From Naegleria gruberi (taxonomy: Eukaryota), in NCBI GenBank assembly GCA_000004985.1, contig GG738877.1: a stretch of 64,000 nucleotides of DNA, one strand, 5' to 3'. How positions within the stretch are numbered: the first letter of the stretch is position 1; the number at the start of each line of letters is the position of its first letter. Below are positions 1 to 31,888 of the stretch, piece by piece. The notes under the pieces are model-generated. The model had not been told where the DNA came from. It was given only the letters and a program-made list of their open reading frames with translations, and ran no database searches. The position numbers and the translations under genes were made by a program.

Positions 1-940
1 TCAACATTTCCATTTGTTCCAAACCGTATGCTACAAAGGCTGGATAGACAGGAAGACTAATATTGGGAATTGTCATTATTTTCAATTCATTCTTGTAAAA
101 GGTAAGCTCCTTTTGTTCTGTACATATTTCCATAATTATAGTATCCCCAACATCACATTTATGTTTAACTTGATCATATTTCGTCTTGTCCTCTTTTTGA
201 TAATTCCACACATATCCATTCGGAGAGTATAGATAACTACCATTCCTATGGTATGGAGAGAGGTTGAAAATTTGCTTTTCCACAATCTCTGATGAGGTAA
301 CACCAACAGCTAACCAAGTTTGGAAAGCTAAAATCCTTACTTTCAATTTAATCTTTCCTGTGAATGTTGTTCCTATTGGAGTATCAAGGAATGTGCTCGA
401 GTAGGATTTGTCAACAATCTTTTCAATTCTATTTCCAACAACCTTAAAATCCTTTGGATTGAACAAGTATTGCACATGATCTGTATTGTTCGTAACTTTG
501 GACAAACTCACTTGAGATGAGGATGTAATTGAACTTGTTCGAATGTGAGAGGCTGATGATGATTTTTCTTGTGGTATTGTGGTGGAGGCAAGATCTTGAT
601 GTTCTGGTTGTTGAAGAGTTTGATTATTATTCGTGGAAATATTGCTGCTACTCGTTGTGGATAAGGCTCCATCAGATGCTGATTTTGCAAGAGTGGAAGA
701 AGTGTTTGTGTCCTCCTTTTCAAAGCTGTACTTTAAGGATTCAAGTGGTGGTGGCTCTATTAGCTTGGATGGACATGAAAATTGTTCCAAGTAGTTTGAC
801 TTCTCAGCTTCCAATGTTGTAGTCGATGTGCTGCTATTACTACTATTTGTGCTGATTGCATCAGAGGAGTTGTTAATATTGGCTGTTGATGGAGTAGAGG
901 TTGTATCATAGATAGGAGGAGGCTTTAATTCACTATCCAT
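1..940 (-). CDS. SPRY/B30.2-domain protein; the N-terminal ~313 codons lie in the window and the gene runs off the window start
   Basis: I translated the minus strand by hand from ATG at 940-938 to position 2 and found no stop. The N-terminus is S/T/N-rich. A SPRY-like block follows (FNPKDFKVVGNRIEKIV...WNYQKEDKTKYD...DTIIMEICTEQKELTFYKNE). The ORF track omits it because there is no stop inside the window. Confidence 0.6.
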   Translation of the reverse strand, partial: MDSELKPPPIYDTTSTPSTANINNSSDAISTNSSNSSTSTTTLEAEKSNYLEQFSCPSKLIEPPPLESLKYSFEKEDTNTSSTLAKSASDGALSTTSSSNISTNNNQTLQQPEHQDLASTTIPQEKSSSASHIRTSSITSSSQVSLSKVTNNTDHVQYLFNPKDFKVVGNRIEKIVDKSYSSTFLDTPIGTTFTGKIKLKVRILAFQTWLAVGVTSSEIVEKQIFNLSPYHRNGSYLYSPNGYVWNYQKEDKTKYDQVKHKCDVGDTIIMEICTEQKELTFYKNELKIMTIPNISLPVYPAFVAYGLEQMEML

Positions 941-1316
941 TTTCAATTTTACGCTTTTTTAATGATATGTTTATGAGTGTAGAGGTGTGATGGAGGAGGG
1001 AGCGAGGAATGTATTAAGGTAGTTTTTTTTGAAGGCGATTTTCTCAAATACGGTATCAATAAAAGAATGATTTCATCCTTTTACACACTTCAATTGGCTT
1101 TTTTAAGGAAATTCAGTAAGTGCTTAACAAAAAAGATTGCTGTTAATTGTTTCATTTCACTTATTGATTTGGCTCTTTCATCACCAACTTGATTTTCACC
1201 AATTTTTCAGTTCAGGTATCAAAAGAGCCAAACAGAAAACACTTTTCTTTGGTTTTTTCTGAAATTGAATTGTGTTGGTATTTGCGGACTTTATTAATGA
1301 TTAAGATCTTTCAGAA

Positions 1317-1389
1317 GCTGGCGTAGCTCAGTCGGTAGAGCGTTGGTCTAATAAGCCATTGGTCGCCCGTTCGATCCCGTCCGTCAGCA
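1317..1389 (+). tRNA. tRNA-Ile(AAU)-like; possibly a degenerate copy
   Basis: Acceptor GCTGGCG/CGTCAGC pairs 7 of 7 with one G-U. The D-arm is canonical (GCTCAGTCGGTAGAGC). The anticodon loop is CTAATAA, reading anticodon AAT, and the T-loop is TTCGATC. By eye the T-stem pairs only 3 of 5 and the anticodon stem 4 of 5. Confidence 0.55.
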
Positions 1390-1671
1390 AATAATTTTAT
1401 AATCCAATCTTTTTATTCTGCAGTTATTAAGAAAGGTGTTTCAATTTAAGATTCTCAGTATGATCTTAAATAGGTTTCATTCTATTGCCCATTTTTTAAA
1501 ATTCATTTTACACATACCATTTCAGCCATAACATTTGACATCAACTCTCTAATATTGTGTCAACTTTCTTCAGTCACCACAAAAAAAACAAATTCAAAAC
1601 TCCCCACAGCTCTCATCCAAGAACAGGACAGAGCAACAAACAACACTTGTATTCCACTCCATTAACACAAG

Positions 1672-3384
1672 ATGACATCTTCAAGATTTTCATTAAAAGC
1701 CCTAAAAGCAACCACAAATTCATCTTCAACCCCAACTATCAGTACTACACAAAACGGTGGCAATAGTAGAAATAACAGTGCCTCCACTCCAACCCTCCCA
1801 TCAGATCAACAACAAATTCATCATCATTTAGATATTGCAACCGATCGAAGCCAAACGACTAATGGTAACAATAGAAATAGCATTCACAGTCATCAATCCT
1901 ATCAAATTAATAATAATACAACTCCTTCCTCGGCAACAACACCTCGAACACCAGCAGCAACCATAGGTGTTGCTTCTGGAGTCAGTACTTCTTCTTCATA
2001 TAATCACACAATAACTGTTGATTCAAGTTATGTTGGTGGTAATAATCACATTGATGATGACTTGAATAATTGGAAACCGATTAGTAGAAACAATTCGAAA
2101 AAATCACTTTCGTCTTCTTTCCGTAAATTGCTTTTTGGTTGTAGAAATGTAAGAGGGGATGAAGAAGTTGAACAGGAGAAGAAAATGATTAGTCGATCAT
2201 CATTGTATTTACCTGATGATCAATTATTTAAAGAAACATCAGAAACTTTGGTAGATGATGCTCATCATAATTCTGCTCACGTAATGGCATTGGTTAGTCC
2301 CAGAGGTAAATCATCACCTAGAACTAGTGCAAATCTGTCACCTGCTCGTCATGACGCTGAAATGAAAAGGAGAAGCGTTGAAAGCCCAACCATGATGTTA
2401 ATCGCAGCGAATCAATCACCATCTTCATCTCATCATCATCATACAACACCAAGTGGAGGTTCGAGTAACTACTCACTAAGAAATAAGATATTTGCTGGGG
2501 CTATTCCAGAAGAGAGAGCTGAGGAAGTAATTTTGAATAGTGACTATTCACAAAAAGTTCAATTTCATTTTGAAGGACAATTTGAAGTCAAACAGTGCCA
2601 TAATTTGGAAACTATTTCCGATTTGACTGCATTCAAGGATTGTATCACTCCATTTGTGAAAATTGAGTGGTTTGTCGAGTTTTTCAATACACAAGGTTCT
2701 TTGAAAAACAAGATGGTTCCAATGCTGAAACCAACTCCTAACACTGATACAAATACATGGAAACAAAGCAAAAAGACAACAGTAACCTGTTTGGAAGTGG
2801 GAAGAAAGGAAGTTTCTTGGAATGAAGTTTTGGATTTTTCTATAACTGTGGATGGATATTTGCATAGAAATGTTTTGGAATTTTACAAAAAGAATAGTGA
2901 ATCGTCTCTATTGGATCAAGTAACCAAACCATATGGAGAGAATGTCATAGGAATTTTGAGAGTCAAGTCTCATCTCTATGACTATGACGATTTACTCCTA
3001 CAGGAGAATATCATTTCACATCATACAATGGAATTCCCAATAACTCTTAAAACTTTAATGAAAAATTCTGGTGCTACTTCTCCTTCCCTAAAGATTGAAT
3101 CATACATTGAAAATTTTGGAAATTCAAATTCTCCACTAGGTACCGTTTCTACACCATCTCATGTTAAATTGCAATCTGTTGGAACATCTAAAGGAACAAT
3201 GTCTCCAACACCTCAAGAAAGTGCCATCTCTGGTTTTGGTGAAAATACAATCACCATGTTTGAAAAAAATCAACCAGTGAATGATTATCAAATGGTTCAA
3301 GATTCTGATTCAGAAATTATCCTCACAATAGTACCAGTTATTGAATTGTCTTACTATGTCAAAATGCTTGGTACTTCTGTATAA
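1672..3384 (+). CDS. S/T/N-rich protein with a C-terminal C2-like domain
   Basis: A 570-aa ORF starts at a real ATG. The N-terminal half is low complexity. The C-terminal region PFVKIEWF...VSWNEVLDFSITV...ILRVKSHLYDYDD resembles a C2 beta-sandwich. Confidence 0.55.
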   Translation: MTSSRFSLKALKATTNSSSTPTISTTQNGGNSRNNSASTPTLPSDQQQIHHHLDIATDRSQTTNGNNRNSIHSHQSYQINNNTTPSSATTPRTPAATIGVASGVSTSSSYNHTITVDSSYVGGNNHIDDDLNNWKPISRNNSKKSLSSSFRKLLFGCRNVRGDEEVEQEKKMISRSSLYLPDDQLFKETSETLVDDAHHNSAHVMALVSPRGKSSPRTSANLSPARHDAEMKRRSVESPTMMLIAANQSPSSSHHHHTTPSGGSSNYSLRNKIFAGAIPEERAEEVILNSDYSQKVQFHFEGQFEVKQCHNLETISDLTAFKDCITPFVKIEWFVEFFNTQGSLKNKMVPMLKPTPNTDTNTWKQSKKTTVTCLEVGRKEVSWNEVLDFSITVDGYLHRNVLEFYKKNSESSLLDQVTKPYGENVIGILRVKSHLYDYDDLLLQENIISHHTMEFPITLKTLMKNSGATSPSLKIESYIENFGNSNSPLGTVSTPSHVKLQSVGTSKGTMSPTPQESAISGFGENTITMFEKNQPVNDYQMVQDSDSEIILTIVPVIELSYYVKMLGTSV

Positions 3385-14863: not shown

Positions 14864-14934
14864 TGCGTCGACCGGGAATTGAACCCGGGTCACGGCGATG
14901 GCAACGCCGTATTCTACCACTAAACCATCGACGC
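14864..14934 (-). tRNA. tRNA-Gly(GCC)
   Basis: Reverse complement: GCGTCGA TG GTTTAGTGGTAGAAT ACGGCG TTGCCAT CGCCGT GACCCGGGTTCAATTCCCGG TCGACGC A. It is a cloverleaf with anticodon GCC. Confidence 0.9.
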
Positions 14935-25185: not shown

Positions 25186-25243
25186 TTTTTTTTAATAATA
25201 CTTATTTCCAAATTTAATTTGGGATGTTAAAAAAGATAAAAGA

Positions 25244-25317
25244 TGCCTCCCTTGGGAATCGAACCCAAGACCTCTGTCTTACTAGGACAGCGCTACTGCC
25301 AACTGAGCTAGGAAGGC
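25244..25317 (-). tRNA. tRNA-Thr(AGU)
   Basis: Reverse complement: GCCTTCC TA GCTCAGTTGGCAGTAGC G CTGTC CTAGTAA GACAG AGGTC TTGGG TTCGATT CCCAA GGGAGGC A. The anticodon is AGT. Confidence 0.9.
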
Positions 25318-25416
25318 TTTCTTCAAAGATTTTTCGTACACAATCTAGTGTAAAACGAAAACAGTTCTTTGAACACAGAACCATAGCATGCAAGTTCCCA
25401 CAAATTAGGCTAAAAA

Positions 25417-26358
25417 ATGTCGTTAAAGCTGTGTGATCTGTCTTCCGATTTGCTGAATGAAATTTTGTTGTTGCTGGATAATTTGTTGGGCTACGATAGG
25501 AATATCATAAATTTATGCTTGGTTTGCAAAACTCTCTATTCAGAGATATCTAAAATTAATAATTTTTGGAATGATAAAATTCATAGAGCCTTCATTCCTT
25601 CGTGTTTTGACACAATTTCCATCAAACAATTGAAAGATTTGGAAAATGAAAACAAACTCATGACAGCTTACTTTAATTTGGAATATTTCTGTATTAATGA
25701 TTCCAAACTTCCAGTGGAAGATCTTGTGAAAATTGAAAACTTTGAAAAAAAACAATTATCAATCTCAACAATTGGAAATGATTGTGACAAGTTCTACACG
25801 GGAGCTGGATTTGGGACTTGGTTTCAAGATGGATTTTATAACCACGAGTACATTTATAGAAAAGGACGGTTTGAATATAGTGGATTGGTCAATTTTGCAG
25901 TCAACCATAAAATATGTTGTAACTTTGACAGTGGTTATCTCTACATTGGTGACGAGTTTCCAAACAATATTTTTGATGGTTTTATTTGGTTGACAAGCTT
26001 GTGGGAATTGACAGATTGGACTGAAATTGAAAGGAGGTGCTTGATCATTAATGACTTTTATGAAGGAAAGGTCAAGATTGATGAACCTGAAAAGCCATTC
26101 TTTATTTGCCTGGTTGCGAAACATTTTGATAGAGAAACATTTGAAAAGATTGTTTATTTATTGAATGGATATATTAAGAGGAGAGGAATGACAGTTTCTC
26201 GACTCATGTATTGTAATTTATTAACGATAGAGCCAAAAGCTGTCATGCTCAGTTTACTAAGCAGAATTTCCAAGAGTTTCTTTTCACAACTATTGAACCA
26301 TCTCCACACAAAGTTTGTCCCTCTTGGCAGACAAAAGAAAAAGTGTTTCCTTATGTAA
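25417..26358 (+). CDS. hypothetical protein with an F-box-like N-terminus
   Basis: A 313-aa ORF. The N-terminus LCDLSSDLLNEILLLLDNL is F-box-like. I recognise no other domain. Confidence 0.45.
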   Translation: MSLKLCDLSSDLLNEILLLLDNLLGYDRNIINLCLVCKTLYSEISKINNFWNDKIHRAFIPSCFDTISIKQLKDLENENKLMTAYFNLEYFCINDSKLPVEDLVKIENFEKKQLSISTIGNDCDKFYTGAGFGTWFQDGFYNHEYIYRKGRFEYSGLVNFAVNHKICCNFDSGYLYIGDEFPNNIFDGFIWLTSLWELTDWTEIERRCLIINDFYEGKVKIDEPEKPFFICLVAKHFDRETFEKIVYLLNGYIKRRGMTVSRLMYCNLLTIEPKAVMLSLLSRISKSFFSQLLNHLHTKFVPLGRQKKKCFLM

Positions 26359-26390: not shown

Positions 26391-27713
26391 TTAAAAGAAT
26401 TTACCAACAATGTTTGAATCTTGTTCCCAATCAGATGACAAATTACCATTCGGATGGAAAATTAGCTTATTAACAACATTAGGATACTTATCAAATGAAC
26501 TAGCTAGTGCATCATAGGAACTAGTCTCAAAAATCACATCAATGGAATCCTTATATCTGTAACTCTCATTCATGTAATAATATCCAATTGTTGTGAACAT
26601 GTAATTGAAATTCTTTCTCACATTTGAGAATGTAGGAGCTACTTGAGAGAGCACTGATGAAATAGTAACTCTATTCTCATCAATCCAACGTTTGGTCTTA
26701 TTTTGATTATCATATCCTTCCTCTCCAATCACTGACAATTCTCTAAAGACAACTCTTTTTACACCCAAATTAATGGCCCATTCCAAATATTGTTCCACTT
26801 GTTCAATATTAGAGATACCTGCCTTAGTGAGAATGCATGAATTCTTCACAACTTTGAATAATGGAGGAAGTACATTCTTGGTGACATTTTCATAAATATC
26901 ATTCAATCGAATTGGTTGTACCTTTTCAAATCTCATAATCTTCTGATTAACTTGTTCATCAAAATGTTGTCTACTCAATTCAATTCTATCAAAATTAAGA
27001 TTTTTCAAACTGTCAACAACCTCTTGAGCATAAAGAGCAAATCCACTTCCATTCGAATACAAAACCTTTTCATCAAATAAATCTGGATATCTTTCCAATA
27101 ATTCACAAAATCTCTGAAACCAATTAGGTTCACTTGTTGCTTCCAATCCAGAAAGTGACAATCCCATATTTAACTTTCCCTTTTCTTTTTGAATGTTATC
27201 AAGAATTTGGAAGGATTTTTCAAGCCCTTTAAAATACTGATCATAATCTTTGATTCTTTTAGTAGGATATGAATTCATCTTCTTTTTAGAACTAGGATTC
27301 TCATCTTGCATTCTTTCTAAATTTTCACTGCAGAAATGACAGTTGGCATTGCAAATCCTTGCAAAAGCATACGGTGTGAAAGTCAACCCATTTCTAACGT
27401 GTAAAATTTTGTTTTTTTCAGATGCATCCGATCCTTGCCAATTAAATATCTCTGATGATAGAGGTGTCATTAATTTAGGTTCATAGAGTGATGATTTCAA
27501 TTGTCTCATGCGAATCAGCTCTTCATCACTTGTTGCTGTCATTACTTGATTTCTGTATGCGTGATGATGTAGAGAAGCAGTGGCGACAGTACATGTGTGA
27601 AAGGATCGGGAGAGGCCAAATTCTCCCACCATGTTCAAGTTTGAACTTTTAAATGATGACGACAAAAAACTCTTTGATGATGTTACTACTGCACAGAGTT
27701 TCATTTTTTTCAC
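26391..27713 (-). CDS. radical SAM domain protein with a presequence-like N-terminus, unclassified
   Basis: It has CX3CX2C (ICNANCHFCSE) and a GGE-like motif (LSLSGLEATSEP). The N-terminus is rich in S, K and R without acidic residues. It matches none of the usual eukaryotic radical-SAM enzymes that I can recall. Confidence 0.7.
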   Translation of the reverse strand: MKKMKLCAVVTSSKSFLSSSFKSSNLNMVGEFGLSRSFHTCTVATASLHHHAYRNQVMTATSDEELIRMRQLKSSLYEPKLMTPLSSEIFNWQGSDASEKNKILHVRNGLTFTPYAFARICNANCHFCSENLERMQDENPSSKKKMNSYPTKRIKDYDQYFKGLEKSFQILDNIQKEKGKLNMGLSLSGLEATSEPNWFQRFCELLERYPDLFDEKVLYSNGSGFALYAQEVVDSLKNLNFDRIELSRQHFDEQVNQKIMRFEKVQPIRLNDIYENVTKNVLPPLFKVVKNSCILTKAGISNIEQVEQYLEWAINLGVKRVVFRELSVIGEEGYDNQNKTKRWIDENRVTISSVLSQVAPTFSNVRKNFNYMFTTIGYYYMNESYRYKDSIDVIFETSSYDALASSFDKYPNVVNKLIFHPNGNLSSDWEQDSNIVGKFF

Positions 27714-27877: not shown

Positions 27878-30800
27878 TTAATAAAAATTGAGAGTGAATC
27901 TGAGCTTTGAGAGTGGAGTAAGGATGGTCAAAATATGATCCTGTTGCACAGGATCACACATAATAGAGTCTGGTCTATAATTCTTTTCCAGGATCATAAT
28001 GTTTTTGAAAATGAACTTCAAAGCATCTGTCAAAATTTGATAATTGAGACAATACACCACAAAACTAAAGAATTTGTCATCAAGTAATTGTTGTTTGGTT
28101 GTTTGATTCTTCTTTTTTACAGTAGAATCTATCGTTAATACTATGCTGTCGAATGAATAACCTGTCTTTACATTCATACCAACTTTGGATAACTCACCCT
28201 TAGCACAGGCAGTAATTAAATGCCATGGATGAGAAATAAGAGTACCAGCAAAATTCTTCCATTTTGACTCAGAAATTAACTTGTCCATTAAGATTGACTT
28301 TAAAATGTACATTATTAAACTTCTGACAACTTTTCCAATGTTATGATTTTTTGACTCGTCTGTAATTGCATTGATTGGAATTTTTTCATTCTTTCCAATT
28401 TCAATAATGTATTGTAAAAGCGTCTTAATGTTACCTTGCAAGGTTGCGATTAGAGTACCTTCCTCTTTTGAACCGCCTGCTTGTTGAGACAATTCAAATT
28501 CAAACTTGAGTTCAAAATTGAAATGTTTCTTCAATAAATTCAAAACAGCAAAAATGGTTGGTGAGTATTCTTCCAAATTCATTATGGATGTTTCTTCGAA
28601 ACACATTGCTGTGTATTTTTGATTGAGAGCGAGCTCATATGTACAAACTGCTAATAACTTGCTTTGTAAAAGGTATTGAATAAAGAGTAAGTCCCTCTCT
28701 TTCAATTTCTTAGGGTCAAGAATTCTCACTTCCTTAAAAGCAAGAAAATCTTGAACAATCTTTTCCTTTTTTACAATATCAAGTTTTGAAAAAATGGTAC
28801 ATAAATCCCTATCAGATTTGAATATTGTCGGTTTGGTTCTGTTAGTAAGTATAGAGTAAATCGAGTGAACTAAAGGTGCCAATAAAGGAGAGGTTCTGTT
28901 AATATTTACAATTCCAGACACTCTTGTTTCCTCAGTCATTGAACTAGTCAACAAATCAATAATGTTTCTTCTCAACTTATCAAGAAGAGGATGTTCCATG
29001 AGAGGTTTTTCTGTATAGAGAAAAGTGTATGGTTTTTCCCATCCCTTTGGAAAAGTGGAAGGATCCACAAAGTTCTCAAACATTTTTTCTTTTCTTTTTG
29101 GTGTAATTGGAGAGTAAAGGTCGTACAGACTCTTGGGAGTGCAAGAAAGAGGCGTTGTTTCGTTGTGAGCACTGTCTGATCTGGAAGGACTTGGATGAGT
29201 GAGAGTATTTGATGTTGTAGTATTTGTTTCAGAAATTGTTGACAAAAGGGCGCAATCTTCTCCAATGAAATCTTCAAGAACTGCATGCTCAACAGTTACC
29301 TCCTGAGCCAATTCTTGTGTGGCTTCTTTCTTTGTGCTACTTGATCTTGAGGAAGGATTAGAATCAAGAAACTCTTGAAGTAGCAAAGCTCCTGCTTCTT
29401 GTTGATGAGGAGAAGAACCTGTTTTCTTTCTATTGGCTCTTTTTGACTTTCTTGAATCAGATCTTTCTCCACTACTGGAATGGCTATCTGTTGTTGATGT
29501 TATTGATACTTTTCTTCCTTCACTGCCTTTTTCCATAGCCTGCTTCTCTAATACAGAAACTAAAACATCAACGCTGCTGGACGGCTCCTCTTCATGGGTA
29601 GAAATGATGTCAGATATCTTTTCCTCTTCAATTATATCTTCCTTTTCTGATTTTGGAACTGATTGTGGGTCAATATTTGATTCTGGCTCACCTTCTGATA
29701 AAAAATCATCAATGTTTACAACAGAATGTTCTGTTGTTTCATCATCACTTTCTTCGCCTTCCTTAATTGATTCTTCTTTCACCATTTTTGCAATGGCTGG
29801 AAGAGGTTTGGCGATTGGTGTTTCTATTTCTTTTATCTCGAGTGGTGACACTTTTGGATCTGGTTTTTTTGGAGTCTTGGAAAGAAATGAGGAAAAATAT
29901 GATCTTATTGATGCAGTTCTGGAGATGGTTGGCTCAGATGCCTTTTTCTCAAAAACTGGATCTGGTTTTGTTTCTACAACTGTAGTTGGTGTTGACTCTG
30001 GTTCTACTGGTGTTATTGGTTCTGAATCGACAGGTGAAGTGGACGCTTGAACTTCAAACACATCCTTTGCAACTTCTATTGGTTTTGGTGATACCACTGG
30101 TAGAGCCTTCACTGGCTTCTTTGGAACAAGAGGCAGAGGTTTTGTTGGAGAATCAACAACAGGCAGACTTGGCTGTTGAGGCAATGCTTTCAAGATAGGC
30201 AGAGGTTTAATTTCGACGATTGGTTTGATTGGTTGAACGGTTTCCTTTTCAATCTGTTTCTCTGGTTCTGTTATCAGCTTAACTTCCACTGTGGTTGTAG
30301 TTTCTTTTTGAGTATTCAAAATTGTAAATGACGTACTTGTTTGAGAATTTGTTTCAACCTTTGGAGTTTCCACAACCACTTGTTTTGGCTCAACTGGAAC
30401 AGGAAGAGCTTTTGGCTCAGAACTCTCAACAACTTTTGGAATCTCTGCTAGTTTATCTTTGGTAACAATTGGAAGAGGTTTCACAGTTGTTTGTTTTGGT
30501 TCTTCAACTTTGATTGGAACTGATGGATCTAGCAATTTTTCCTCTTTTACCACAACTGGTTTTAAAGAAATCAGGGTTGTTTCTTTGCTTTCATGTACAT
30601 TAGGAGTTGAGACAATTGATTGTTTTTCAGGAGATTTCTCAATGGTTTTAGTAGTTTTGGGAGAAGTTTTCTCTTCTAATTTGGGAGAAGATGGTGCTTT
30701 TTCATCAATACGTGATGACTTTAAGGTAATGGTGGTGATTTCCTTTTCCACAATTTCCAAAGAATTTACGTCAATTGGTTGTTCTACAAATACAGGTTGT

Positions 30801-31888
30801 TGTTGAAGAGGAGTTTTATCCTCAATCGAAGGAGAAACAATTTCTTTTTCTACTATAGTGGGTGTTGAATTTGTTTTGACCTCCTCACTACATGGTGTTG
30901 TGGCATTTTCCTCGTTATATGCAGGTTCAAGACTTGGTGATGATGTAGTCTCTTGAATTGATTCGATGGTATTTGAAGTTTGGAACACCTCATCAGTTAC
31001 AATTGTTGGTGATAATGGGGTATGGTCCACAACATGTGATTCCTCAATATCATATTCTTCAAAGGTTTCCAAATAATCCTCTTCTTCAAACTCAACAACA
31101 TGGTCCTCAGGCTCTGAACTTGTTGGCAGTGTTGTGGTTGTTATTTCAACACTATTTGGAGTAGTATCAATGATCTGCTCTTCTTTGGAAGTAATGATGG
31201 GAAGTTCGGAGCTTTTATATTCTTCTACAGTGTCAATAAGGGATGATTCTGGAAGTGCCTCAATATTACTATTATCTGATATTATTGTTTTAGTTACATC
31301 TATTGGTGAAGTAGAGACTACTGGATGTTCTTCATACTCTTCATATTCCTCGTAAAATTCATCATCGTCAATCTCTTCTGGAGTTAACTCTTCGGTTGTA
31401 AGTTGTTTTTCATGGACTTCGACAAAAGTTGTTGAAGGCTCAGCAAGTTCTTCTTGTTCTTCATCTACCACTTTCTCATTATTTTCCTCAATTATAGGAT
31501 GAATAGGAGTGTAAGAGAAAAAGAAGGAGCTATGATCAGCCTTAAACCTCTTAAAATGAATCTGTGGAGTAGAAGTGGTAATTTTCGACTCAACTTGAGA
31601 GCGAAGTTTTGAGTACCTTTTGGAAATTCTATCCAATGCTTGTATCGGTGATTTGTTCTTTTGCATATCATTACTAGTCTCTTTTAAAATTGCTTGATAA
31701 TTCCTTTCCAAGCTATTTAACTCTTCCTCATTCGAAAATATATCCTGGTTCCTATTTCTATAGAGAAATACACCAAGCTTGGATGGATTTTGTGATTGAA
31801 GGGATTTTAATTCATTCTTGCCGTCTTGTTGATGATTTTCATTGAGTTTTTCAAATCGCGCTCTCAATGACTTCCACCCTTCCGTCAT
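27878..31888 (-). CDS. large (1336-aa) repeat-rich protein with an acidic EEYEE region, PEVK-like P/K/V/T tandem repeats and a C-terminal globular domain
   Basis: One uninterrupted ORF. Repeats are of the form KPLP..KALPVV.PKP. I cannot assign a family to the C-terminal ~500 aa. Confidence 0.65.
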   Translation of the reverse strand: MTEGWKSLRARFEKLNENHQQDGKNELKSLQSQNPSKLGVFLYRNRNQDIFSNEEELNSLERNYQAILKETSNDMQKNKSPIQALDRISKRYSKLRSQVESKITTSTPQIHFKRFKADHSSFFFSYTPIHPIIEENNEKVVDEEQEELAEPSTTFVEVHEKQLTTEELTPEEIDDDEFYEEYEEYEEHPVVSTSPIDVTKTIISDNSNIEALPESSLIDTVEEYKSSELPIITSKEEQIIDTTPNSVEITTTTLPTSSEPEDHVVEFEEEDYLETFEEYDIEESHVVDHTPLSPTIVTDEVFQTSNTIESIQETTSSPSLEPAYNEENATTPCSEEVKTNSTPTIVEKEIVSPSIEDKTPLQQQPVFVEQPIDVNSLEIVEKEITTITLKSSRIDEKAPSSPKLEEKTSPKTTKTIEKSPEKQSIVSTPNVHESKETTLISLKPVVVKEEKLLDPSVPIKVEEPKQTTVKPLPIVTKDKLAEIPKVVESSEPKALPVPVEPKQVVVETPKVETNSQTSTSFTILNTQKETTTTVEVKLITEPEKQIEKETVQPIKPIVEIKPLPILKALPQQPSLPVVDSPTKPLPLVPKKPVKALPVVSPKPIEVAKDVFEVQASTSPVDSEPITPVEPESTPTTVVETKPDPVFEKKASEPTISRTASIRSYFSSFLSKTPKKPDPKVSPLEIKEIETPIAKPLPAIAKMVKEESIKEGEESDDETTEHSVVNIDDFLSEGEPESNIDPQSVPKSEKEDIIEEEKISDIISTHEEEPSSSVDVLVSVLEKQAMEKGSEGRKVSITSTTDSHSSSGERSDSRKSKRANRKKTGSSPHQQEAGALLLQEFLDSNPSSRSSSTKKEATQELAQEVTVEHAVLEDFIGEDCALLSTISETNTTTSNTLTHPSPSRSDSAHNETTPLSCTPKSLYDLYSPITPKRKEKMFENFVDPSTFPKGWEKPYTFLYTEKPLMEHPLLDKLRRNIIDLLTSSMTEETRVSGIVNINRTSPLLAPLVHSIYSILTNRTKPTIFKSDRDLCTIFSKLDIVKKEKIVQDFLAFKEVRILDPKKLKERDLLFIQYLLQSKLLAVCTYELALNQKYTAMCFEETSIMNLEEYSPTIFAVLNLLKKHFNFELKFEFELSQQAGGSKEEGTLIATLQGNIKTLLQYIIEIGKNEKIPINAITDESKNHNIGKVVRSLIMYILKSILMDKLISESKWKNFAGTLISHPWHLITACAKGELSKVGMNVKTGYSFDSIVLTIDSTVKKKNQTTKQQLLDDKFFSFVVYCLNYQILTDALKFIFKNIMILEKNYRPDSIMCDPVQQDHILTILTPLSKLRFTLNFY

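Follow-up and report, generated by a model that had tools for sequence, protein, structure and literature searches.

Which radical S-adenosylmethionine (SAM) enzyme is encoded on the reverse strand of the 64,000-nucleotide stretch of Naegleria gruberi contig GG738877.1 (assembly GCA_000004985.1; hereafter the window) between positions 26,391 and 27,713, and where did its gene come from? The eukaryotic radical-SAM repertoire is usually put at only about a dozen families, and the initial annotation of this open reading frame (ORF) had placed its product outside that repertoire. Examination of its motifs and of a structural model confirmed that the ORF encodes an intact radical-SAM enzyme and, judged from full-length sequence similarity, the protein belongs to an uncharacterised and otherwise bacterial family. 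The bacterial members are almost always paired with a small nucleotidyltransferase, and the eukaryotic ones form a single small branch in which N-terminal extensions suggestive of organelle or membrane localisation are predicted.

Motifs, fold and family of the Naegleria protein

The cysteine motif CX3CX2C, read by the initial annotation as C-NAN-C-HF-C, was located at C121/C125/C128 (positions 27353-27330) and is invariant in the 59 family members aligned. The GGE-like sequence to which it had also drawn attention, GLSLSGLEATSEP, spans residues 184-196 and contains the tetrad S188-G189-L190-E191 (SGLE), likewise unchanged across those 59 sequences. Pfam recognised the generic Radical_SAM domain with a score only just above the cut-off (32.4 versus 29.5 bits, E 1.3e-7). 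The AlphaFold model computed on the family alignment (predicted local distance difference test, pLDDT, 85.2; predicted template modelling score, pTM, 0.84) contained a confident radical-SAM barrel, with residues 1-46 (pLDDT<50) and 143-151 disordered. Both the partial TIM-barrel fold and the GGE-type SAM-binding motif by which the superfamily is recognised were therefore found, and the assignment to radical-SAM enzymes made by the initial annotation was borne out by the Pfam score, the model and the fold matches given below.

Motifs and fold together predict that the protein binds one [4Fe-4S] cluster and cleaves SAM to a 5'-deoxyadenosyl radical, a chemistry near certain for the family. In the proposed mechanism, the cluster held by C121, C125 and C128 would reductively cleave SAM, and the resulting 5'-deoxyadenosyl radical would abstract a hydrogen atom from the substrate. 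Beyond these three residues, C293 is the only cysteine conserved in the 59-sequence alignment, and an auxiliary cluster is for this reason not predicted. The C-terminal domain (residues 330-440) matched no Pfam model and has no auxiliary-cluster cysteines.

Searches of Pfam, NCBIfam and PADLOC returned no specific family above threshold, the generic Pfam Radical_SAM model being the only match. A clear match to a housekeeping radical-SAM family, which had been named beforehand as the outcome that would contradict the initial annotation, was thus not obtained with Pfam or NCBIfam, and the placement of the protein outside the usual eukaryotic families stood. With NCBIfam, the Naegleria protein reached 21 bits with PqqE (cut-off 381) and did not match MoaA; the viperin model NF038283 (cut-off 180) scored the Naegleria protein at 16.8 bits and none of its bacterial homologues above 33 bits, the PADLOC pVip model gave 22 bits, and MoaA TIGR02666 gave 16.3 bits against a cut-off of 284 for the bacterial homologue P0073. 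Sequence searches of the PDB with the single protein, with a bacterial homologue and with the 59-sequence profile matched no solved structure. The best fold matches, at about 14% identity, were MoaA, viperin, GDGT-MAS and peptide maturases, and Pfam and NCBIfam scans detected no SPASM/twitch or peptide-recognition domain. Since each membership feature tested failed, the enzyme resembles the MoaA/viperin/SPASM neighbourhood by sequence and fold yet is a member of none of those families.

What it does resemble over its full length is a set of 341 homologues (E<=1e-3), with which it shares the motifs RxGLTFTP, CNAHCxFCSE, GYYYYNE and ETSSY. Relatives outside Naegleria are 38-47% identical, in most cases along about 88% of the query (best E value, 4.5e-91). 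These matches and the Pfam E value go far past anything that chance would give. Most are bacterial proteins of 360-370 amino acids, chiefly from Bacteroidota and Myxococcota, also from Acidobacteriota and others; the nearest homologues are accordingly bacterial outside a tiny eukaryotic clade, in line with the expectation raised by the initial annotation. Our literature searches found no paper on the N. gruberi gene, on its family, or on a pair of radical-SAM enzyme and nucleotidyltransferase.

The eukaryotic branch and its N-terminal extensions

A eukaryotic gene whose nearest relatives outside a small eukaryotic clade are bacterial could be a bacterial contaminant or the dead relic of a transfer, but both explanations are effectively refuted. 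The Naegleria gene is flanked on both sides by eukaryotic genes of a 394.7-kb scaffold, where its upstream neighbour on the same strand, encoding a 1336-residue RUN-domain protein, ends 173 nucleotides from it. Its GC content (33.3%, with 27.9% at third codon positions, GC3) is host-like, the neighbour having a GC3 of 27.0%. Given these flanking genes and this base composition, the gene is a resident of the Naegleria genome and no contaminant. The N. fowleri orthologue is found on a 723-kb contig, also with eukaryotic flanking genes, and the intact ORF with every catalytic motif conserved speaks against a relic.

A profile built from the eukaryotic and Naegleria sequences retrieved only about ten eukaryote-type members among 5.8 billion sequences, scoring 571-637 bits versus at most 459 for any bacterial protein. 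They comprise three Naegleria-clade sequences, Telonema and environmental eukaryotes (unidentified flagellates). One environmental member (P0031, locus L063) is encoded on a 998-kb contig carrying TRAPP, RCC1, SIR2, F-box LRR and intron-split genes, another (P0115, L069) adjoins an Enkurin gene, and P0052 comes from the transcriptome of Telonema subtile (EP00656). In a neighbour-joining tree of 43 sequences (358 columns, 200 bootstraps), the Naegleria clade was recovered in 200/200 replicates, the other eukaryotes in 193/200 and all eukaryote-type sequences together in 169/200. An independent character gave the same grouping: exactly 24 residues separate the third cluster cysteine from an invariant Y-F pair in each of 121 bacterial members examined (121/121), versus 29-37 residues in every eukaryote-type sequence (32 in N. 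gruberi), corresponding to an insertion of 5-13 residues. The sequences thus show that the Naegleria gene belongs to one small eukaryote-type branch, marked by an insertion after the cluster motif. A direct and private transfer from Bacteroidota to Naegleria was rejected, because the shared bootstrap clade and the common insertion agree. The very patchy distribution is compatible with either an ancient acquisition and subsequent losses or a later spread from eukaryote to eukaryote. A search of 2.9 million viral contigs found no relative.

Ahead of R54, the three proteins of the Naegleria clade carry extensions of 47-54 residues that bacterial proteins do not have. These are poorly conserved in sequence, bear a net charge of +3 to +5 with no or one acidic residue in the first 20, and contain no transmembrane segment (KD19 <=0.58); relative to the prokaryotic homologues they are thus positively charged and acid-poor, as is expected of presequences. 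In N. gruberi, the first 57 residues include 7 K/R, 4 H and 15 S/T. The initial annotation had called this region basic, serine-rich and devoid of acidic residues; its basic, S/T-rich character was verified, but E31 is acidic. Its description of the N-terminus as presequence-like also held, given the length and charge of the extension, its disorder in the model and its lack of a membrane segment. Mitochondrial targeting is therefore plausible from sequence and model, and we consider the chances that the extension directs the enzyme to the mitochondrion to be about even.

The competing explanation, that the extension is merely a disordered tail of a cytosolic enzyme receiving its cluster from the cytosolic assembly pathway, appears rather unlikely, though it deserves to be taken seriously. 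The amphipathic (hydrophobic) moment of the extension, which is 0.61 in the Naegleria-clade protein P0002 and 0.86 in N. fowleri, is a weak 0.36 in N. gruberi, as this explanation would have it. Against it, all three extensions keep their length and positive charge despite diverging in sequence, which is the usual behaviour of presequences, and that of N. fowleri starts with MRKVLLRTIRKNRDWLLF, a typical basic amphipathic start. Agreeing with a cytosolic location, XP_002675602.1, the public entry for the N. gruberi protein, did not appear in the part of the N. gruberi mitochondrial proteome table considered here (PMC8134430).

The sister eukaryotes are built differently at this end. In five of the non-Naegleria eukaryote-type members, a transmembrane helix (KD19 2.3-3.0) with basic residues behind it forms the N-terminus, and a C-terminal tryptophan is common to all six non-Naegleria sequences. 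The eukaryotic proteins would accordingly have gained two kinds of N-terminal localisation sequence, a soluble basic extension in Naegleria and a transmembrane anchor in the sister group. The N-terminus of the Telonema protein P0052 (...SSAASDVYKRQ) contains a translated Nextera adapter (GATGTGTATAAGAGACAG = DVYKRQ), so that its first ~28 residues are an artefact; what is left, VLALATVAW-KR, may be the end of a membrane helix.

Two further observations concern individual members of the branch. The P0002 sequence derives from contigs of 1.5-1.6 kb (L059, L060 and L061) with a GC content of 25% and 76% nucleotide identity to the window gene. Repeats of telomere-like polarity cap both ends of this single-gene molecule, (CAATCCC)n at the start and (GGGGATT)n at the end (positions 1600-1621 of L059, the 3' end of L060 and 1-24 of L061), and the 3' repeat begins at two positions about 35 nucleotides apart. 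The interpretation of the contigs as transcripts was withdrawn because of these repeats. The published candidate telomere of N. gruberi is TTTGGG, and the end repeat is for that reason not the N. gruberi telomere; the molecule could be a nanochromosome-like element, derive from a Naegleria relative, or be a library artefact. Separately, an RCC1-repeat gene adjoins the radical-SAM gene in N. fowleri (L068, 6015-7382) and in L063 (10340-11461), not in the N. gruberi window, probably by coincidence, RCC1-repeat genes being numerous in protists.

The bacterial partner and the putative substrate

Fifty-four bacterial genome loci, from Hymenobacter, other Cytophagales/Bacteroidota, Blastocatellia and many Myxococcota including Archangium minus, were compared. 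A gene for a protein of ~160 residues with a nucleotidyltransferase fold lies within 6 kb of the radical-SAM gene in 45 of them, and in 43 of the 54 it follows on the same strand at a distance of no more than 150 nucleotides. The two genes overlap by 4 nucleotides in Rhodocytophaga, and in a Myxococcales operon the stop codon of the first overlaps the start of the second. The partner gene of Rhodocytophaga rosea is GXP67_13985. The partner scored above threshold with no Pfam or NCBIfam model, and its catalytic pattern (G27, D45-x-D47 and D103) is invariant. An exhaustive profile search yielded 280 members of the partner family. Two proteins (P0277 and P0288) fuse a radical-SAM domain of the Naegleria enzyme's family to the nucleotidyltransferase domain. 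Neighbourhood, translational coupling and fusions agree, and hence support the pairing of radical-SAM enzyme and nucleotidyltransferase in bacteria.

Additional domains accompany the pair. In about a dozen proteins, an N6/N4 amino-methyltransferase-like domain precedes the nucleotidyltransferase domain, and at locus L066 a radical-SAM gene of the Naegleria enzyme's family (hhalign probability 100%) lies upstream of a gene for one of these fusions and overlaps it. One further protein joins the nucleotidyltransferase to a DprE1-like flavin adenine dinucleotide (FAD) oxidase of the ribose oxidase type. In 23 loci, mostly of Myxococcota, a gene for a 720-residue tandem TauD-type dioxygenase lies directly upstream.

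Three side observations touch on the pair. At L066, the cassette adjoins a divergent gene for an NrtR-type regulator (NUDIX plus winged helix; 956-1708, reverse strand); regulators of this type sense ADP-ribose-like ligands, a possible nucleotide-related hint from a single locus. At the Myxococcales locus L062, ergothioneine-type genes (DinB_2/FGE-sulfatase and Methyltransf_33; 1-1316, reverse strand) lie ~8 kb upstream of a TauD-radical-SAM-nucleotidyltransferase operon and are probably unrelated to it. Finally, P0255, a 301-residue nucleotidyltransferase of the partner family on a 3.1-kb contig of JGI metagenome 3300059473, has Ala/Ser low-complexity inserts and a hydrophobic, tail-anchor-like C-terminal helix and may, from these sequence features, be a eukaryotic version of the partner.

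In bacteria, the family enzyme thus normally works with the minimal nucleotidyltransferase encoded directly downstream or fused to it, and some loci contribute an amino-methyltransferase-like domain or a TauD-type dioxygenase in tandem form. We tentatively favor, for a radical step that would modify a product or a substrate of the bacterial nucleotidyltransferase, as substrate a nucleotide or other ribose- or phosphate-bearing molecule, possibly an RNA end, without holding this to be probable. MoaA uses guanosine triphosphate and viperin cytidine triphosphate. The lean toward a nucleotide-type substrate arises because MoaA and viperin are the nearest folds and the weak hidden Markov model similarities are of viperin type, because the partner is of a type that uses nucleoside triphosphates, because the accessory domains are of types acting on nucleobase amino groups (of DNA or tRNA) or on ribose hydroxyls, and because seven basic residues, R107, R243, R248, K290, R324, R348 and K416, located in the barrel and C-terminal domain, show full or nearly full conservation. 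A peptide, a lipid or an amino-acid-type molecule is also a possible substrate.

A more specific version of the nucleotide idea would make the protein a viperin-like antiviral enzyme, converting a nucleoside triphosphate to a chain-terminating analogue and tethered to a membrane or organelle in the way that viperin is tethered to the endoplasmic reticulum. This is improbable: scores lie far under the 180-bit family cut-off, MoaA, GDGT-MAS and peptide maturases match the fold about equally, the partner is unmatched in the PADLOC defence library, the viral contigs yielded no relative, and the bacterial cassettes lie among housekeeping genes and not in obvious defence islands. Only marginally less doubtful is a peptide or protein modifier of the maturase type acting on ribosomally synthesised and post-translationally modified peptides, in which case the nucleotidyltransferase would act as a further tailoring enzyme or be the modified protein itself; the solitary conserved C293 leaves no auxiliary cluster, peptide-recognition and SPASM/twitch domains were not detected, and the cassettes of Hymenobacter and Myxococcales are so compact that a precursor gene would fit neither between the two genes nor next to them. 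Least probable of these three is an action on a lipid or other membrane-associated substrate, such as that of GDGT-MAS, whose extra clusters the Naegleria enzyme does not have; neither the bacterial nor the Naegleria proteins contain a membrane segment, and the partner, a nucleotidyltransferase of the type that modifies antibiotics or tRNA, is soluble.

Taken as a whole, a functional enzyme of this family, in a eukaryotic branch of its own, localised by its N-terminus and acting on a nucleotide-type substrate, is the account we judge slightly better than even, and several points weigh against it. The tree is a simple neighbour-joining analysis. Nine of the 54 bacterial loci have no partner nearby; tblastn with 28 partner and 2 TauD queries gave no match in the window; among 30 word-indexed matches of the partner profile none was eukaryotic; none of the AT-rich and long candidates traced from the 280-member set had a named eukaryotic source; and the gene downstream of the eukaryotic homologue at L063 is not the nucleotidyltransferase partner. 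Because the partner was not found in the window, next to the L063 homologue or among the candidates traced to a source, and those nine bacterial loci also do without it nearby, the eukaryotic enzyme may do something that does not need the nucleotidyltransferase. As for localisation, the low amphipathic moment seen in N. gruberi counts against import, and since the sister eukaryotes use a transmembrane helix, localisation may differ between the two groups. With regard to the substrate, the modelled fold is matched about as well by the lipid enzyme GDGT-MAS and by the peptide maturases as by MoaA and viperin, and the TauD-type dioxygenase is most similar in sequence to amino-acid and betaine hydroxylases. 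The boldest extension of the favored account would have eukaryotes possess, separately from viperin, another lineage of localised radical-SAM enzymes that goes back to a single acquisition of a bacterial system of radical-SAM enzyme and nucleotidyltransferase, received a mitochondrial presequence in Naegleria and a membrane anchor in Telonema-like flagellates, and modifies nucleotides or RNA, making an undescribed modified nucleotide; it is speculative and unlikely to hold in full.

The Naegleria locus and comparison with known systems

The window ORF is 100% identical to the N. gruberi entry XP_002675602.1 (NAEGRDRAFT_69217, 'predicted protein', 383 amino acids; P0001 in our set), which begins at M58. 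The ORF as listed opens with GTG. Since a eukaryotic start codon must be ATG, this start was discarded and the ATG at 27704 taken. Starting at M58 (27542) drops 54 codons (27540-27704, reverse strand), including those of R54-N55, a pair near-invariant throughout the family, bacteria included. For this reason, the public gene model is probably truncated, with a mis-annotated start codon. The RUN domain of the upstream neighbour lies at its extreme C-terminus (residues 1257-1334), the rest being mostly low-complexity sequence rich in Ser, Thr, Pro and Glu.

Table 1 Features of the radical-SAM gene and of its surroundings in the window.
Feature	Positions	Strand	Remarks
Whole ORF, GTG to stop, 440 aa	26391..27713	-	Uninterrupted; XP_002675602.1 / NAEGRDRAFT_69217
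Probable true coding sequence, 437 aa plus stop	26391..27704	-	First in-frame ATG, context aaaaaaATGa
ATG of M58, start of public 383-aa model	27540..27542	-	Probably too far downstream
N-terminal extension, aa 4-53, candidate organelle presequence	27555..27704	-	Absent from bacterial homologues; basic, S/T-rich, disordered
Conserved segment ahead of the barrel, aa 54-105	27399..27554	-	R54, N55, R70 and W74 invariant or nearly so
Radical-SAM core, PF04055, aa 117-261	26931..27365	-	Pfam match
CX3CX2C [4Fe-4S] motif, C121-N-A-N-C125-H-F-C128	27330..27353	-	Invariant in 59 sequences
Third cluster Cys to invariant Y160-F161	27237..27329	-	Bears eukaryote-specific insertion; aa 143-151 disordered
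GGE-like SAM-binding motif GLSLSGLEATSEP, aa 184-196	27126..27164	-	Invariant or nearly so in 59 sequences
C-terminal beta-rich domain, aa 330-440	26394..26726	-	Invariant GYYY.NE, E.SSY, K416/H420/W429
Gene for 1336-aa RUN-domain protein	27878-31888	-	Upstream neighbour
tRNA-Thr(AGT)	25244-25317	-	~1 kb downstream of the radical-SAM gene
70-aa ORF	25224-25436	+	Opposite tRNA-Thr(AGT) and overlapping it; surely spurious
tRNA-Ile(AAT)	1317-1389		
tRNA-Gly(GCC)	14864-14934		

The gene adds to the eukaryotic repertoire a radical-SAM family unnamed in the curated libraries searched, with clear bacterial ancestry, a diagnostic insertion and predicted lineage-specific, targeting-like devices. On the bacterial side stands a tight pair of radical-SAM enzyme and minimal nucleotidyltransferase found in at least three phyla, fused forms included, which probably makes or modifies a metabolite or nucleic-acid mark. 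Naegleria fowleri also has the gene, which is not part of the usual animal repertoire; were it essential, its product would be a parasite-specific enzyme. We regard the protein as an intact enzyme of an unstudied family whose evolutionary pattern is interesting and not extraordinary, at present a lead for enzymology and protist evolution and not a field-changing surprise.

Compared with known systems, there are several differences from MoaA/MOCS1A (GTP 3',8-cyclase): identity with the Naegleria protein is 14%, the C-terminal cysteine triad that holds the second cluster of MoaA is absent, and the Naegleria family has another C-terminal domain and another gene partner. Viperin (RSAD2) and the prokaryotic viperins differ in a C-terminal domain unrelated to that of the Naegleria protein and in model scores of 17-33 bits, far under the family cut-off; the bacterial members of the present family pair with a minimal nucleotidyltransferase, whereas the prokaryotic viperin counterpart is a nucleotide kinase. 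Unlike the SPASM/twitch maturases SuiB, SkfB, anSME and PqqE, and unlike GDGT-MAS, the Naegleria protein has neither auxiliary Fe-S cysteines nor a peptide-recognition domain. The partner, in turn, is 13-16% identical to the minimal nucleotidyltransferases TM1012, MenT toxins, LnuA and ANT(2''), and is dedicated to the radical-SAM enzyme, in contrast to the antitoxin or antibiotic-resistance contexts typical of that group.

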